Below, one piece after another: positions 25,400-30,548 of a DNA stretch of 32,735 nucleotides (within the stretch, counting starts at the first letter, position 1; each line of letters starts with the position of its first letter). Source of the stretch: a virus; IMG/VR virus record IMGVR_UViG_2757320713_000001, positions 1 to 32,735 of that record. One strand, 5' to 3'. Position numbers and translations under genes: made by a program. A model generated the notes under the pieces. It saw only the letters and a list, made by a program, of their open reading frames with translations. It made no database searches and was not told the DNA's origin.

Positions 25400-26464
25400 T
25401 TGGAAAAACCGATTTATTACGTTTACCCTCAGCACCATGACGTTTCATTCAAATTTGTGGCTAAAGAACATATTAAAATGTTGAGAGAAAAATATACAGT
25501 TTACGAAATTCCAGCATTATCTTTCTATCAATTTACACCTTTCAAATATCCAATTTCTATAATTCACCCATTCTTCTATAGCATATGGCACTGGGGAAAA
25601 GTTGAATTTTCTTTCTTTGAACAGTATAGAAGCCGAGTTTCAGCAATTGTAGGAGTTGAAGTAGCTGACAGTGATAGAATTTCAGAAAAATTCATAGATT
25701 ATGCTAATAATTATGCTGATAGATTAATTGGAAATTCAGAATGGACTATAAACGCTTTTAAAAATTCTGGACTAAAAATTCCAATTTTCAAAGTTGTTCA
25801 TAATTTCAATTCTAGATTATTGGCAAAAGATAATGAGTTAAAAGTTGATGAACAAGTTAAATATATTGAAAAAGTTAAAAATGAGAAGAAAATTAAATTG
25901 ATATTTATTTCACTTTGGCATTCTGATTTTAGAAAAGGAGCGGATTTATTTCATAATATTGCTAAAGAAATACAAAAAGAAAGAGACGACATTTATTTTT
26001 TAGTTAAATCTGGAGGGCCAAGGACAGATTTTCAAGATTTGAGAATGTTTAATTTGACTGGAAATACAGATTTTGACAATATTGTTAAAATGTATAGAAT
26101 TTCTGACTTATATTTGTTGCCTTCAAGAGGCGGAAGTTTTGAACTTAATGGACTAGAGGCATTCATTTCCAAAATTCCGACAATTGCCACAAAAGGTGGT
26201 GCATGGGAAGAATATTTTCCTAACAATTTAAAAGATTTATTAGTAGATTCTTGTAGATTTCCAGATGTTCTTTGGAATAATCCAATTCATATTGGACAAG
26301 GAGTAGAAATGTGCATAAATAACGCAATAGAAAAAATCTTAGAAGTTCTAGATAAACTAGATGATTATAAAGCAAAAATTGAAGAAAACTATAACTTTTG
26401 GCTAGAAAACTTTAGTTATGAAACTGTAAAAAAACAATTATTTAACGCTTTGACTTTTACTTAA
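25400..26464 (+). CDS. GT-B glycosyltransferase, SIRV ORF356-like, TTG start
   Basis: PSRGGSFELNGLEAF..IPTIAT; GGTGA SD before the TTG. Confidence 0.92.
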   Translation: MEKPIYYVYPQHHDVSFKFVAKEHIKMLREKYTVYEIPALSFYQFTPFKYPISIIHPFFYSIWHWGKVEFSFFEQYRSRVSAIVGVEVADSDRISEKFIDYANNYADRLIGNSEWTINAFKNSGLKIPIFKVVHNFNSRLLAKDNELKVDEQVKYIEKVKNEKKIKLIFISLWHSDFRKGADLFHNIAKEIQKERDDIYFLVKSGGPRTDFQDLRMFNLTGNTDFDNIVKMYRISDLYLLPSRGGSFELNGLEAFISKIPTIATKGGAWEEYFPNNLKDLLVDSCRFPDVLWNNPIHIGQGVEMCINNAIEKILEVLDKLDDYKAKIEENYNFWLENFSYETVKKQLFNALTFT

Positions 26465-26809
26465 AAAATCATAAATTTTTAGTAATGCTTCAATATTTTC
26501 TTCTCTCTTTAACTTCTTTATCTCTCTTATTATTTCATCATAAATATTATTAATTTTAATCAGTTCTAAAACTTCCTTAATTAGTAAAATTGAAAATCTA
26601 TGAGATTGTTGAACTATAACATAAATTTTTCTTGCTAATTTTTCAGCATCAAATTTATCATATTCAATTGAAAGTTCAACATCTGAATATTTTGCGGTAA
26701 CATTATTTTCATAAAGAGTCAAAAAAAGTTTATATTTGTCTTCTACAATTACTTCAGCTTGATTATCATTTATCTTAACTATCACGTTTTCTCTTAACTT
26801 AAACTCCAT
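26438..26809 (-). CDS. About 123-aa hypothetical protein
   Basis: Exact ATAAATATGTCATA promoter at 26833-26846; 27-bp convergent overlap with the GT. Confidence 0.75.
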   Translation of the reverse strand: MEFKLRENVIVKINDNQAEVIVEDKYKLFLTLYENNVTAKYSDVELSIEYDKFDAEKLARKIYVIVQQSHRFSILLIKEVLELIKINNIYDEIIREIKKLKREENIEALLKIYDFLSKSQSVK

Positions 26810-26898
26810 GTCTATCAATATAATATATATTTTATGACATATTTATTTCTTTAAATTTCGAGTAAATCTTAAATTGGTCATAATGTAGGAGCTATGAT

Positions 26899-28089
26899 AT
26901 GGAATTTAAAAGAGAAAGTTCCGGAATAATAAAAAGCTTTTCAGCATTAGATATTTTTTCAATTAATCTTTTGTATATGGGAATTTTAAGCGGAATAAGC
27001 TATCCATTATTTGTCTCTGAAATGATGAAAAATGTAAACTTATTATTTGCAATTTTAATAGGCTCTGCTTTTGGAATTCCACTTTTAGTAATGTACTATT
27101 TGCTAACTAAGAAAATACCGTTAAATGGAGGAGATTACGCTTATATTAGATCTTCATTTTCTCCAAAGTTTTACACAATTTTCGGAATTTCACTATGGCT
27201 AATTTACGTATTTTCAGCTCCAGTTTTATCTGATCTTGTATTGTTAAATTTCAATATTCCAGTAATTGATAAGTTTTTAATTTCAGAATTATTATTTGCT
27301 ATTGCTTTACTTAGCATAGTTAAAAAGTCAATTTATGCATATATTGTAGACGGAATTGCAATTTTACAAATAATTGTTTCTTTAATTCTGCCAATTTCAA
27401 GTTTCCATTTTCAAGCCCCAAATTTCATATTATCAAACACTTTACTTTCAGCTTTACTATTTGATTTGTCTATGTTTCTCTTCATAAATGCGATTAGTTA
27501 TATAGCTGGCGAAACAAAAAATGTAGACAAATCCATGAAAATTGGATATTTCTTAAGTTACTTTGTAGTTACAATATTAGCGTTATTAGACAGTTATTCA
27601 AATTTAAATATCTTATTTCTGTTAATGCCGATATGGTTTATGAGTTATATTTTTGTTACTTCTATGATTCAAAGTAGATTAATTCAAAATTTAGCATTTG
27701 ATAAAATCTTACCTGAAAAATTTGCAAAAATAACGCCTAATGCTTTACTGTTAATCTTTATCGCTGATACAATTGCAAACGTTTTAGAAAATCTATTTAA
27801 TTTCTCAATTTCATTTGGATTTGATGGATTATTATTCATTTTCTGGAACTTTATAATTGTTAGTTTTGCATTTCTAAAGCTAACAAACAAAAAACTATTA
27901 TTTTCAATAGTAATGATTAGCCTAATTTTACAGATCTTCTTATTCTTTTATCTAGGCATATCAAATTCAATATTCTATAATTTTGTAATTCAAGGAAATG
28001 TTCTATTTGCAATATTAAGAATATTGCTAATGCCAATTTTAGGAGGAATTATTTACTTGTTAAGGAGAAAAATTATAAACGCTGAATAA
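26899..28089 (+). CDS. APC-superfamily permease-like polytopic membrane protein (396 aa)
   Basis: FKRESSGIIKSFSALD N-terminus as in Sulfolobales amino-acid permeases; GGDYAYI, AGETKN; about 11-12 hydrophobic segments. Confidence 0.85.
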   Translation: MEFKRESSGIIKSFSALDIFSINLLYMGILSGISYPLFVSEMMKNVNLLFAILIGSAFGIPLLVMYYLLTKKIPLNGGDYAYIRSSFSPKFYTIFGISLWLIYVFSAPVLSDLVLLNFNIPVIDKFLISELLFAIALLSIVKKSIYAYIVDGIAILQIIVSLILPISSFHFQAPNFILSNTLLSALLFDLSMFLFINAISYIAGETKNVDKSMKIGYFLSYFVVTILALLDSYSNLNILFLLMPIWFMSYIFVTSMIQSRLIQNLAFDKILPEKFAKITPNALLLIFIADTIANVLENLFNFSISFGFDGLLFIFWNFIIVSFAFLKLTNKKLLFSIVMISLILQIFLFFYLGISNSIFYNFVIQGNVLFAILRILLMPILGGIIYLLRRKIINAE

Positions 28090-28091
28090 AG

Positions 28092-28994
28092 ATGAAATTG
28101 GTATTTGGCATTTCTAGTTCAAGAAGTTATTTTTTTAAAACTAATTTTCCAATTTTAGTTAATCAACTAAGATTTAAAAGAAAAACATGGAGAAATGAAA
28201 CTTGGGTTGATAGTGGCGGATTTCAAATTATAATGCATAACTTAAAAATTTCTGTAAATGATGTCTTGCAAAAGTATAAAAGTGTTAATGCTTACGCATT
28301 TTTTTCTCTCGATATTCCTAGCGTTTTTGCACCTCTTGACAAACGGAATTTTGAATATTTTGAGTATCTCTACACAAAAATTGAATGGATAGAAAAAATT
28401 ATACCAGTTTTACATATTTATCCACTTCAAGATTTGGATAAAGCTATTGATTTTTACAAACAATACAGTTATTATTTTGCAATTGGCGGAATAATGACTT
28501 CTAGCAAATTAAGAGTTTTACAATATACATTTCCATGGATTTATTACCTAAAAAGAAAAGTATCTTATCTTCACGTTCTCGGTATATCATCTCCATATTT
28601 TTTACAAATTTTTAATAATATACAAAGCATGGATACCGCATTTTGTTCAATAATTTCAGCATTTAAAGAAATAATTTGGGTTAATGGATCTAGGAGATAT
28701 ATTGGAAATATGAAAACAAAAAGGGAAAGATATAAAATTACAAAAGAAGAAAAAGAACAATTGTTTGAATTTTTAGATAAGCATAATTTCCCATTTGAAT
28801 ATGACTTAAATAATAGGCATATTTTAGAACTAATAAACGCTTATATTCTATTGTATCATAATTGGAAAATTAAGAATAAGTATACTGAATATGCAGAAAA
28901 ACTTAGAAAAATGGGATTAGACAGTTTGACAAGCGAGTTAATTAGAAATTATAAAATTGCAAATGAAATATTAAAACAGAAAAGAGAAAAATAG
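28092..28994 (+). CDS. tRNA-guanine transglycosylase-like (TGT/DpdA-related) protein (300 aa)
   Basis: WVDSGGFQ, FSLDIP, IIPVLH, FAIGG, LHVLG and SMDT motifs of the TGT barrel; 2 bp after the permease. Confidence 0.85.
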   Translation: MKLVFGISSSRSYFFKTNFPILVNQLRFKRKTWRNETWVDSGGFQIIMHNLKISVNDVLQKYKSVNAYAFFSLDIPSVFAPLDKRNFEYFEYLYTKIEWIEKIIPVLHIYPLQDLDKAIDFYKQYSYYFAIGGIMTSSKLRVLQYTFPWIYYLKRKVSYLHVLGISSPYFLQIFNNIQSMDTAFCSIISAFKEIIWVNGSRRYIGNMKTKRERYKITKEEKEQLFEFLDKHNFPFEYDLNNRHILELINAYILLYHNWKIKNKYTEYAEKLRKMGLDSLTSELIRNYKIANEILKQKREK

Positions 28995-29008
28995 AAGATA
29001 AAAAAATA

Positions 29009-29566
29009 TTAACTTAATAATTTGTCTAATTGCTCATCATAAATTACTTCAACCTTTCCATCTTTAATCACTATTTTACCTGACAAATTCTCGCCGAAAT
29101 ATTGTATCAAATATCCGTATCCAGCAGTTCTAACTCTACCGCTTATGCTATACTGAATTTCTACATCTCCATTACAATAAAGATGTTTAACCTCTCCGAG
29201 ACTTCCTCTAGGACTTCTCAATATTTCAAAATCTTCACATTCACCGCTAAGCACTTTGAAATAAACACCGCCTCTATAACCTGATGGTAATTCAATAACA
29301 TATAATGTATTTCCCGGTTCAAACTTTATGATTGGAGTTCCCTTTTCTGTTACAACAATTTTTGCATTTGCTAATTTTACCGTAAACTCATTAACTCTAT
29401 CAAATTCTATAAAACTTCCATTTTCACCGCTTTCTACAAATCTTCCACTGAAATATATAACTCTTCCTCTAGCTCTATCACCAATTTCAGTTATATCCAA
29501 TGCCTTGTCCTCAAAAAATGGATATTTCTCATCTTTTAAACTAACTTGAACTTTTAACTTATTCAT
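29009..29566 (-). CDS. 185-aa beta-rich hypothetical early protein
   Basis: Class A promoter and GGTGA SD; Gly/Arg motifs SGYRGG and RSPRGSLG. Confidence 0.8.
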   Translation of the reverse strand: MNKLKVQVSLKDEKYPFFEDKALDITEIGDRARGRVIYFSGRFVESGENGSFIEFDRVNEFTVKLANAKIVVTEKGTPIIKFEPGNTLYVIELPSGYRGGVYFKVLSGECEDFEILRSPRGSLGEVKHLYCNGDVEIQYSISGRVRTAGYGYLIQYFGENLSGKIVIKDGKVEVIYDEQLDKLLS

Positions 29567-29825
29567 TCTCTTATCACCAATATCTATTATGTAAATCTTT
29601 GTATTTAAAGTTATCTCTTAATTTTTACGTTTATATCTTACGCTATTTTTATCATTAAATTTCTTACTGTATAATTCCTCTTGATTTTAAAATATTATCC
29701 CAAAATTGAGAAAAAATAAGCATGAAGATAGATGATAAAGAGTAGAAAAATAAAATTAATAAGTTAAAAATTATAGATTAACAAAAAGAAAAAAATTATA
29801 GATAAAAAACGATTAATTTAAAACT

Positions 29826-30548
29826 TTAATCAACTTTATGACTTTTAGGTCTTGGATGCGTTATTAAATAATATTTATTTCCACTTAGCATAACTGAATT
29901 TTCGCCATGGTCTGCTGATTTCATAACAAATGTTGTAGAATTTTGAAGATATATCAAAAATGCAATACCAGGTGTTGAAAATAAATCAGTTGCTAATACA
30001 GGATTTGAAAATTGTATCTCATGATTATAAATTGTCAAACTGTTTACATGATTGAGACTAAGATTTAATTCGCTATTTGGTGGTGGAACTTCATAAATTT
30101 CCAAATTGCCTTGATTAAAAACTAAAGAAAATTGATATAATTGTCCTTTAATAAATATATCGAAAAAGTCTATTGCATAATTGGTATAATTAATAAGTAA
30201 TTTTTTAGAATTAAGATTTGAAAGTTCTATTTGTTTTAATATAAAGTTTTTCATATCCTCTAAACTTCTTGTAATTTTATTTCTTCTATAAACTGAAATT
30301 ATTGATGGAGCTGGCGTATAATATATGCCTTTAGTTTCATCTAATTGATTACCATCATACTTAAAACAACCGTTAAACGTTAATCCTGACCTAGAAATAT
30401 ATTTAGAACAATTTACATAATGATTTGAAATTAACGAAATTTTTGTAACTTGACCATTTGAATGTTTCAACATAAAAACGATTGGCAAATATTTTATTTG
30501 TTTTAAAATTTTAACTTCATACTTTTTTTGGTCTTCAACTTGGGACAT
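29826..30548 (-). CDS. acrIIIB1: AcrIIIB1 homologue (type III-B anti-CRISPR)
   Basis: YVNCSKYISRSGLTFNGC, GIYYTPAPSIIS, NYAIDFFDIFIKGQLYQF, IYNHEIQFSNPV, TPG, SADH and THPRPK align with recalled SIRV2 gp48; GGGTGA SD before ATG 30548. Confidence 0.85.
   Translation of the reverse strand: MSQVEDQKKYEVKILKQIKYLPIVFMLKHSNGQVTKISLISNHYVNCSKYISRSGLTFNGCFKYDGNQLDETKGIYYTPAPSIISVYRRNKITRSLEDMKNFILKQIELSNLNSKKLLINYTNYAIDFFDIFIKGQLYQFSLVFNQGNLEIYEVPPPNSELNLSLNHVNSLTIYNHEIQFSNPVLATDLFSTPGIAFLIYLQNSTTFVMKSADHGENSVMLSGNKYYLITHPRPKSHKVD

Follow-up and report, generated by a model that had tools for sequence, protein, structure and literature searches.

The window analysed here is a 32.7-kb stretch of viral DNA, positions 1 to 32,735 of IMG/VR virus record IMGVR_UViG_2757320713_000001. 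It belongs to a SIRV-type rudivirus and has about 25% G+C (75% A+T). By megablast, positions 26000-30000 are 94% identical to SIRV9 and 91.5% identical to SIRV8, both Yellowstone Sulfolobus islandicus rod-shaped viruses (SIRVs). SIRV4-9 and SIRV11 recur in all lists of matches and SIRV10 in none, and the virus is probably SIRV10 itself. Two open reading frames (ORFs) in this region encode an APC-type permease of 396 amino acids (aa) and a TGT/DpdA-like transglycosylase of 300 aa. An earlier note on this DNA had placed the two ORFs on one strand, 2 nucleotides (nt) apart, and had ascribed both genes to SIRV1/2 as well. The arrangement was confirmed (Table 1), as was the presence of both genes in SIRV1 and SIRV2; the SIRV2 counterparts are gp14/ORF399 for the permease and gp13/ORF310 for the enzyme. 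In RefSeq sister viruses the pair is annotated as 'aminoacid permease' and 'queuine tRNA-ribosyltransferase'. Both ORFs are real genes, because they are under purifying selection: the pairwise ratio of nonsynonymous to synonymous substitution rates (dN/dS) among SIRVs lies between 0.10 and 0.24 (permease 0.10-0.17, enzyme 0.13-0.24).

The enzyme matches PHROG 887, 'queuine tRNA-ribosyltransferase', with an E value of 1e-66. Searches of PDB chains with its sequence and with a 17-sequence profile returned nothing at E ≤ 10, and its homology is visible only through the fold, PHROG 887 and hhalign (E 1e-3). The AlphaFold (AF2) model, with a mean predicted local distance difference test score (pLDDT) of 83, has the fold of the TGT catalytic TIM barrel. 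Foldseek matched this model with a probability of 1.0 and found 188 chains at E ≤ 0.001, the top matches listed being all TGTs. The VIA comparison gave Z scores of 20.3 for human QTRT1 (7nq4; 258 aa, 3.1 Å) and 20.2 for Pyrococcus arcTGT (1iq8). The structural alignments end at the catalytic domain. The TIM barrel is thus shared with arcTGT and TGT (1iq8, 7nq4, 1p0e; Z 18-20 over about 250-260 residues) and motifs of the DSGG.Q, LDIP and D-x-x-D type align, but the identity is 10-15% and the viral enzyme, at 300 aa compared to about 500 aa, lacks the zinc cluster and the C1, C2 and PUA domains. Indeed, the alignment of the 17 enzyme relatives contains no conserved Cys and no Cys/His zinc cluster.

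Invariant across these 17 relatives are D40 (WVDSGGF/YQ), D74 (LDIP), H161 in the H-x-L-G motif, and D181 (SMDT). In the hhalign alignment with Sulfolobaceae arcTGT, D40, D74 and D181 pair with the Asp residues of the DSGAYQ, LDIPT and DSFDS motifs. We take these three residues to be the catalytic (general acid/base, nucleophile) and base-recognition aspartates of TGTs. Because this catalytic Asp set aligns with that of arcTGT, the viral enzyme looks catalytically competent. Judged from sequence and model, it is a minimal, zinc-free TGT-fold base-exchange protein of the DpdA kind. Its identity is 65-94% to the SIRV and SRV orthologues and 37.5% to the STSV1/2 protein. An Atlas feature search with the enzyme returned only viral clusters, some of them labelled TGT or DpdA. 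One enzyme cluster bears the RefSeq name 'MULTISPECIES ... [Bacteria]'. Longer fused forms (553-2000 aa, for example full ArcS) were searched for and none was found, a null result of little weight.

Proteins of this family have been catalogued before. Those of SIRV1, 2, 4, 5, 7-11 and SRV are listed as belonging to DpdA-only viruses in Supplementary Data 1 of Hutinet 2019 (PMC6884629). No preQ0 synthesis genes were seen in the window by the earlier note, although no dedicated search for them was made, and the classification of the SIRVs as DpdA-only by Hutinet agrees. The viral DpdA proteins (those of the DpdA-only viruses and STSV2_15) are likewise minimal TGT folds without a PUA domain that keep the catalytic Asp residues. 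The DNA of STSV2 carries the deazaguanine dCDG at 0.04% of G (Cui et al. 2023, PMC10516641).

The permease matches PHROG 8289, 'aminoacid permease' (E 6.5e-200), and more weakly Pfam AA_permease_2 (E 5e-4, 19.6 bits, below the gathering cut-off of 27). In the full Pfam scan at E ≤ 1, AA_permease_2 was the sole match, with no YhhQ/COG1738, QueT or NCS1, and the Pfam and NCBIfam scans together found no known family of preQ0/queuine transporters (YhhQ/COG1738, QueT/QrtT). As for the enzyme, a sequence search of PDB chains returned nothing at E ≤ 10. The AlphaFold (AF2) model of the permease has a pLDDT of 85 and 12 long helices. In the VIA comparison about 363-365 of its 396 residues align with y+LAT1 (8xyj, Z 35.4), AdiC (5j4n, Z 34.0) and ApcT (3gia, Z 31.3). 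Further matches with Z scores in the range 30-35 are CAT4, LAT1, SLC7 transporters and GkApcT. No NCS1 entry is present among the best 50 structural matches; the LeuT fold is common to both groups and leaves room for a distant kinship.

A phmmer search of 1.84 billion representatives found 50 relatives of the permease in total. The nearest are other rudiviral permeases, followed by proteins of 466-554 aa that pass Pfam AA_permease_2. Among the cellular relatives, P0093, P0099, P0100, P0102, P0103 and P0108 pass this model, and the named ones are designated APC or amino-acid permeases and come from Sulfolobus, Sulfuracidifex and Stygiolobus. The signatures GGDY.Y and GE.KN, the latter after TM6 and characteristic of the amino acid/polyamine/organocation family, are present in the viral permease and also in its cellular relatives. 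In the alignment, loop deletions have cost the viral protein 90-150 residues relative to its Sulfolobaceae kin. It shares the 12-helix LeuT-type fold and the GE.KN signature with the APC transporters (TC 2.A.3; SLC7 LAT/CAT, AdiC, ApcT, GkApcT) but is shorter and scores below the Pfam gathering threshold. Sequence and model together identify it as a complete, slimmed 12-helix APC-family transporter of the amino acid/polyamine branch, which most likely moves an amino acid, a polyamine or a similar organic cation across the membrane of the infected cell. Nothing in this evidence ties it to nucleobase carriers or known preQ0 transporters.

These results bear on several claims of the earlier note. 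Its identification of an APC-superfamily permease and a TGT/DpdA-like transglycosylase is upheld by PHROG, by the structural matches of the AlphaFold models and by the motifs. It had also used the presence of the NCS1 nucleobase symporters in the APC superfamily as an argument for a nucleobase substrate. This argument would not carry over to the present protein, since the Pfam relatives, the Sulfolobaceae kin and the SLC7/AdiC/ApcT/CAT folds all point to the amino acid/polyamine branch.

In the permease tree, the rudiviral permeases and two cellular Sulfolobus permeases form a clade nested within the Sulfolobaceae permeases, with a support of 99 in the Shimodaira-Hasegawa-like approximate likelihood ratio test (SH-aLRT). 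The permeases of ARV2 and SSRV1 cluster with one cellular sequence with a support of 93, which is under the 95% mark of the tool, and may represent a separate capture. Saccharolobus genomes contain 5-7 paralogues of the viral permease subfamily. The neighbourhoods of the closest cellular permeases (L003 and L005) hold a glycosidase, a GNAT protein, PaREP1 and a TnpB-like gene, and give no hint of a substrate. Two contigs of assemblies labelled Streptomyces gamaensis and Planomonospora alba (L001 and L002) encode a permease 70% identical to that of the window; these contigs almost certainly stem from rudivirus DNA that contaminated the bacterial assemblies.

Table 1. Positions of the two genes, their spacer, candidate promoter elements and the codons of the aligned aspartates in the window.
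Feature	Position	Strand	Remarks
Candidate archaeal TATA-like box, TTTAAA	26850-26855	+	Read from sequence; upstream of permease ATG
Candidate archaeal TATA-like box, TTAAAT	26869-26874	+	Read from sequence; upstream of permease ATG
Permease ORF, 396 aa	26899-28089	+	ATG start; TAA stop at 28087-28089
Spacer, two bases (AG)	28090-28091	+	Junction TAA-AG-ATG
DpdA-like minimal TGT-fold transglycosylase ORF, 300 aa	28092-28994	+	ATG start; without zinc site, C1, C2, PUA
Asp40 codon, W-V-D-S-G-G-F/Y-Q motif	28209-28211	+	Aligns with first catalytic Asp of arcTGT/TGT
Asp74 codon, L-D-I-P motif	28311-28313	+	Aligns with base-recognising Asp of arcTGT/TGT
Asp181 codon, S-M-D-T	28632-28634	+	Aligns with second Asp of arcTGT D-x-F-D, the covalent nucleophile in TGTs

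The distribution of the two genes was surveyed in 10 lineages of the Rudiviridae by tblastn and profile searches. Both genes are present in 4 lineages, the permease alone in 2 and neither in 4. The tandem pair is found in US and Icelandic SIRVs, with an intergenic gap that varies from a 4-nt overlap in SIRV4 to 2 nt in the window and 8 nt in SIRV2. Adjacency in tandem is not conserved beyond the SIRVs. In SRV, ORF419 and ORF294 are adjacent but convergent, with overlapping ends (L123:1987-4108), and in SBRV1 the permease and the enzyme are 4.6 kb apart on opposite strands. ARV2 and SSRV1 encode the permease without the enzyme (L120:2131-4887 and L121:2167-4887), STSV and the cellular genomes hold the enzyme without a linked permease, and ARV1, ARV3, MRV1 and SMRV1 have neither gene. 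A scan of IMG/VR with the permease profile recovered SIRV-like contigs already seen and no further permease-only viruses. A published statement that SIRV2 gp13-gp14 are absent from SRV (PMC6315595) differs from our finding that SRV encodes both. In ARV2 and SSRV1 the permease gene is preceded by a TFB homologue and followed after 10 nt by a gene for a 207-aa protein of PHROG 17844, which has no homologue in the window. That the 207-aa protein might be a hidden TGT-like or DUF5591 protein was rejected by Pfam, hhalign and BLASTP.

Within the window the two genes have different nearest relatives. The permease is closest to that of SIRV8 (96.7% aa identity; dS 0.20, compared to 0.40 for SIRV9), and the enzyme is closest to that of SIRV9 (94% aa identity; dS 0.13, compared to 0.64 for SIRV8). 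By these divergences the cassette is a recombination mosaic whose genes have different recent histories.

The viral enzyme has a close chromosomal counterpart. Among 47 Sulfolobaceae species genomes, which were reached through a permease locus, the viral enzyme profile detects one ORF of about 295 aa with the same motifs in 30 chromosomes (E 1e-88 to 1e-118). The carriers are Saccharolobus islandicus, including a Yellowstone strain, S. solfataricus, S. shibatae, Sulfurisphaera spp., Acidianus spp., Stygiolobus spp. and Sulfuracidifex. The cellular gene adjoins a gene for a DUF5591 protein of about 185 aa (Pfam E 5e-19), which corresponds to positions 269-411 of the NCBIfam ArcS alpha model and is referred to below as the ArcS-core protein. 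DUF5591 is found in 29/47 genomes, a set nearly identical to that of the enzyme carriers. The same overlapping enzyme/ArcS-core pair is encoded by STSV2 and STSV4, and in STSV2 it sits beside genes for thymidylate synthase and a DNA methyltransferase. No ArcS-core gene was found in the window. Conversely, no permease homologue lies within 10 kb of the cellular enzyme gene in any of the 10 chromosomes inspected, and none is linked to the enzyme in STSV1/2/4. The chromosomal pair is therefore homologous in its enzyme and opposite in its arrangement to the rudiviral pair, with the ArcS-core gene beside the enzyme and the permease never within 10 kb (10/10).

In Saccharolobus islandicus the pair opens an array of six co-directional genes (L149:1915-9802; likewise L148, L150, L151, L152 and L100). 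Their order is the TGT/DpdA-like enzyme (294 aa), the DUF5591/ArcS-core protein (188 aa), a HerA-like DUF87 ATPase (537 aa, E 2e-37), a KAP-NTPase-like protein (1012 aa), a 229-aa protein and a NurA-domain protein (363 aa, E 4e-16). The array is found in S. islandicus, S. solfataricus, S. shibatae and others, and Sulfurisphaera species have the first two genes only. PADLOC has no model that matches the viral enzyme, the cellular enzyme or the ArcS-core protein, the HerA-like neighbour being the only one matched. In its predicted gene content the array, which belongs to the natural hosts of SIRVs, resembles a DNA-marking module to which a nuclease module has been added. In the enzyme tree a single clade (SH-aLRT 99) holds the cellular sequences, with the STSV sequences nested inside it, and the rudiviral sequences lie outside on long branches. 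This topology points to a recent capture of the enzyme by STSV and to an old viral lineage for the rudiviral enzyme. The rudiviral proteins thus differ from STSV2 DpdA both in their position outside the cellular and STSV clade and in that no ArcS-core partner was found in the window.

The same genomes provide a candidate source of the modified base. QueC (PF06508) is present in 47/47 Sulfolobaceae, as an ORF of 463-511 aa in 46 of them and as a shorter match only in the remaining genome; the size of this ORF fits the GAT-QueC fusion of Crenarchaeota (PMC5485725). An arcTGT of about 500 aa (PF01702) occurs in 44/47 species, and QueD in 4/4 Saccharolobus genomes. Archaeosine (G+) has been reported in the tRNA of Sulfolobus acidocaldarius and Sulfurisphaera tokodaii (PMC11298593). 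Cui et al. 2023 (PMC10516641) described the host of STSV2 as being without queuosine (Q) or G+ pathway proteins, which differs from the counts of QueC and arcTGT obtained here. The reliance of DpdA-only viruses on host preQ0 or on uptake has already been proposed (Hutinet 2019, PMC6884629), and the DpdA-only Salmonella phage 7-11 bears a mark when its host makes preQ0. Since the hosts have preQ0 pathway genes, an importer is unnecessary to explain a DpdA-only virus. The earlier note had the base come from the host or from outside. Of this, the host as a source stands and suffices on the evidence of QueC, arcTGT and QueD, and the need for import does not.

Taken together, these data are best accounted for by two host-derived accessory genes carried as a SIRV-type cassette, in which the enzyme would mark viral DNA with the help of host preQ0 and a coupling to the permease is the less likely case; we give this reading a probability of roughly 0.55. 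The two genes would probably be co-transcribed, and their mutual dependence forms no part of the reading. The permease would descend from the multi-copy amino-acid permease family of the Sulfolobaceae. In viral DNA, the enzyme would replace some guanines by a 7-deazaguanine, either preQ0 or one of its derivatives, the base presumably being supplied by the host's own preQ0 pathway. We lean towards DNA rather than tRNA as the target because the cellular homologue adjoins the ArcS-core gene and then the HerA/KAP/NurA genes in S. islandicus, S. solfataricus and S. shibatae, and because the STSV2 pair lies next to the thymidylate synthase and DNA methyltransferase genes. In a laboratory stock of SIRV2, gp10-gp14, which include the gp13 enzyme and the gp14 permease, were spontaneously lost (Mayo-Munoz et al. 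2018, PMC6315595), and the authors report wild-type efficiency of propagation for every SIRV2 deletion mutant but the last (gp37). As this loss was without a reported growth defect, both genes are dispensable in rich laboratory culture, which fits accessory or niche functions.

Several observations weigh against this reading. At E ≤ 1 the enzyme matches no Pfam family, the TGT model PF01702 included, and it has no NCBIfam match. The canonical base-pocket Gln, a further difference from arcTGT and TGT, is not conserved in the viral enzyme family. Each of the 22 SIRV-like contigs from IMG/VR has the permease gene immediately ahead of the enzyme gene, in the same orientation. The cassette is on the minus strand of the left arm in SIRV2 and on the plus strand of the right arm in US SIRVs, with its order and spacing kept, and every rudivirus with the enzyme also encodes the permease. 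The constancy of the tandem, its survival of a move between arms and strands and the lack of a permease-less enzyme hint at a functional link that two independent accessory genes would leave unexplained.

Such a link was the central proposal of the earlier note, in which the permease brings in a 7-deazaguanine base (preQ0, preQ1 or similar) and the enzyme incorporates it into either viral DNA or the tRNA of the host. The invariant SIRV tandem with its gaps of -4 to +8 nt, the adjacency of the two genes in SRV, convergent as they are, and the confinement of the rudiviral enzyme to genomes that also have the permease (4 both, 2 permease only, 4 neither) are in its favour. However, by hand calculation and before correction for shared ancestry, such a nested distribution has a chance probability of 15/210 = 0.07, which is not significant. 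There is a precedent in phages that encode the preQ0 transporter YhhQ, and an uptake route was put forward for the DpdA-only phages (PMC6884629), but YhhQ/COG1738 and the QueT/QrtT ECF S-components (PMC5372724, PMC11130926) have only the proposed role in common with the viral permease, from which they differ in fold and family. By family the permease is of the amino acid/polyamine branch, with AA_permease_2 as its one Pfam match, and the hosts synthesise preQ0 themselves. The earlier note had treated the joint or independent occurrence of the two genes as a check on coupling, and here the evidence is divided. The 22/22 SIRV tandem speaks for it; the permease alone in ARV2 and SSRV1, the enzyme apart from it in STSV1/2/4 and in the 30 chromosomes (10 inspected), and the SBRV1 genes split over 4.6 kb and opposite strands speak against it. 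Outside rudiviruses the conserved partner of the enzyme is the ArcS-core gene. Thus the conserved tandem and the nesting leave something of the proposal that the permease supplies the substrate of the enzyme, and the family of the permease, host preQ0, the ArcS-core partner and the genes found alone contradict it; on balance we consider it quite unlikely. The family of the permease would be better suited by another form of coupling, in which it imports an N-donor of the lysine, arginine or glutamine type for a host DUF5591 ArcS-type step that turns DNA-bound preQ0 into an archaeosine-like base. The ArcS of T. kodakarensis transfers L-lysine to preQ0 (PMC11298593), the partner of the host and STSV enzymes is an ArcS-core protein, and the permease finds its best structural matches among carriers of cationic amino acids, namely y+LAT1 (with Lys), CAT4 and AdiC. 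This scheme is nonetheless wholly inferential and, in our estimate, very improbable: DUF5591 was not found in the window, amino acids are concentrated in the cell, the host already has 5-7 paralogous permeases, and no permease is linked to the enzyme/ArcS-core pairs of cells and STSV.

The remaining alternatives concern what the enzyme acts upon and to what end. It might exchange a base in host or mis-modified tRNA and so tune translation during infection, with the permease unrelated. The TGT fold with its catalytic Asp set and the database name 'queuine tRNA-ribosyltransferase' would agree with this, as would the fact that the characterised archaeal cellular TGTs all work on tRNA; archaeosine formation, moreover, reportedly does not require the PUA domain. 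We nevertheless hold a tRNA target to be unlikely. The hosts already have a full-length arcTGT (44/47), and the viral enzyme is without the C1, C2 and PUA domains and the zinc subdomain. Moreover, its cellular homologue is linked to the HerA and NurA DNA enzymes, the related STSV2 carries deazaguanine in its DNA, and viral minimal TGT-fold proteins have so far been DNA enzymes (PMC10516641). The DNA-marking reading preferred above can also be refined. The viral enzyme may write on viral DNA the 7-deazaguanine self-mark of the host cluster, so that this DNA escapes the HerA/KAP/NurA machinery. The co-directional six-gene array in S. islandicus, S. solfataricus and S. shibatae and the homology of the viral and cellular enzymes, which have the same catalytic residues, are compatible with such forgery, and the DpdA marks of bacteria and phages shield DNA against restriction (PMC6884629). 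On the other hand, the SIRV2 stock without gp10-gp14 reportedly grew like the wild type on derivatives of S. islandicus LAL14/1 (PMC6315595), the rudiviral enzymes represent an old lineage separate from the cellular clade rather than a recent capture, and the restriction function of the host cluster is putative. We therefore regard this refinement as possible and tentative. A more elaborate version would make the pair one counter-defence unit, in which the enzyme forges the host self-mark and the co-transcribed permease supplies a limiting deazapurine base or the N-donor amino acid of the ArcS step; this we judge to be improbable.

Two features of the DNA around the genes concern their expression. 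The second TATA-like element of Table 1 is centred about 27 nt before the permease ATG, a spacing that would mean a leaderless transcript if the element were used; such motifs are common at 75% A+T. Runs of T7 are half as frequent as expected in the whole window, with 69 observed and 141 in shuffles, and this scarcity may reflect selection against oligo-T terminators. On the sense strand, two T7 runs are inside the enzyme ORF (28130-28136 and 28299-28305) and none is inside the permease ORF.

Much of this system is already known. Both genes are annotated, the enzyme has been catalogued since 2019, and published work has considered how the host or uptake might supply the base; the specific link to an APC permease is the one new element, and it rests on gene order within one virus clade. 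In the literature we found neither a measurement of DNA modification in a rudivirus nor a paper that treats the rudivirus permease and transglycosylase as a functional unit. Were a transporter to feed a DNA-modification enzyme, this would constitute a new kind of viral auxiliary module. The more interesting lead, however, is the host chromosomal homologue, which lies in a cluster resembling a modification system joined to a nuclease. If rudiviral DNA carries 7-deazaguanine, DpdA-type marking would extend to the best-studied archaeal virus model, and would be connected with the uncharacterised host cluster in which HerA and NurA accompany a DpdA-like/ArcS-core pair.

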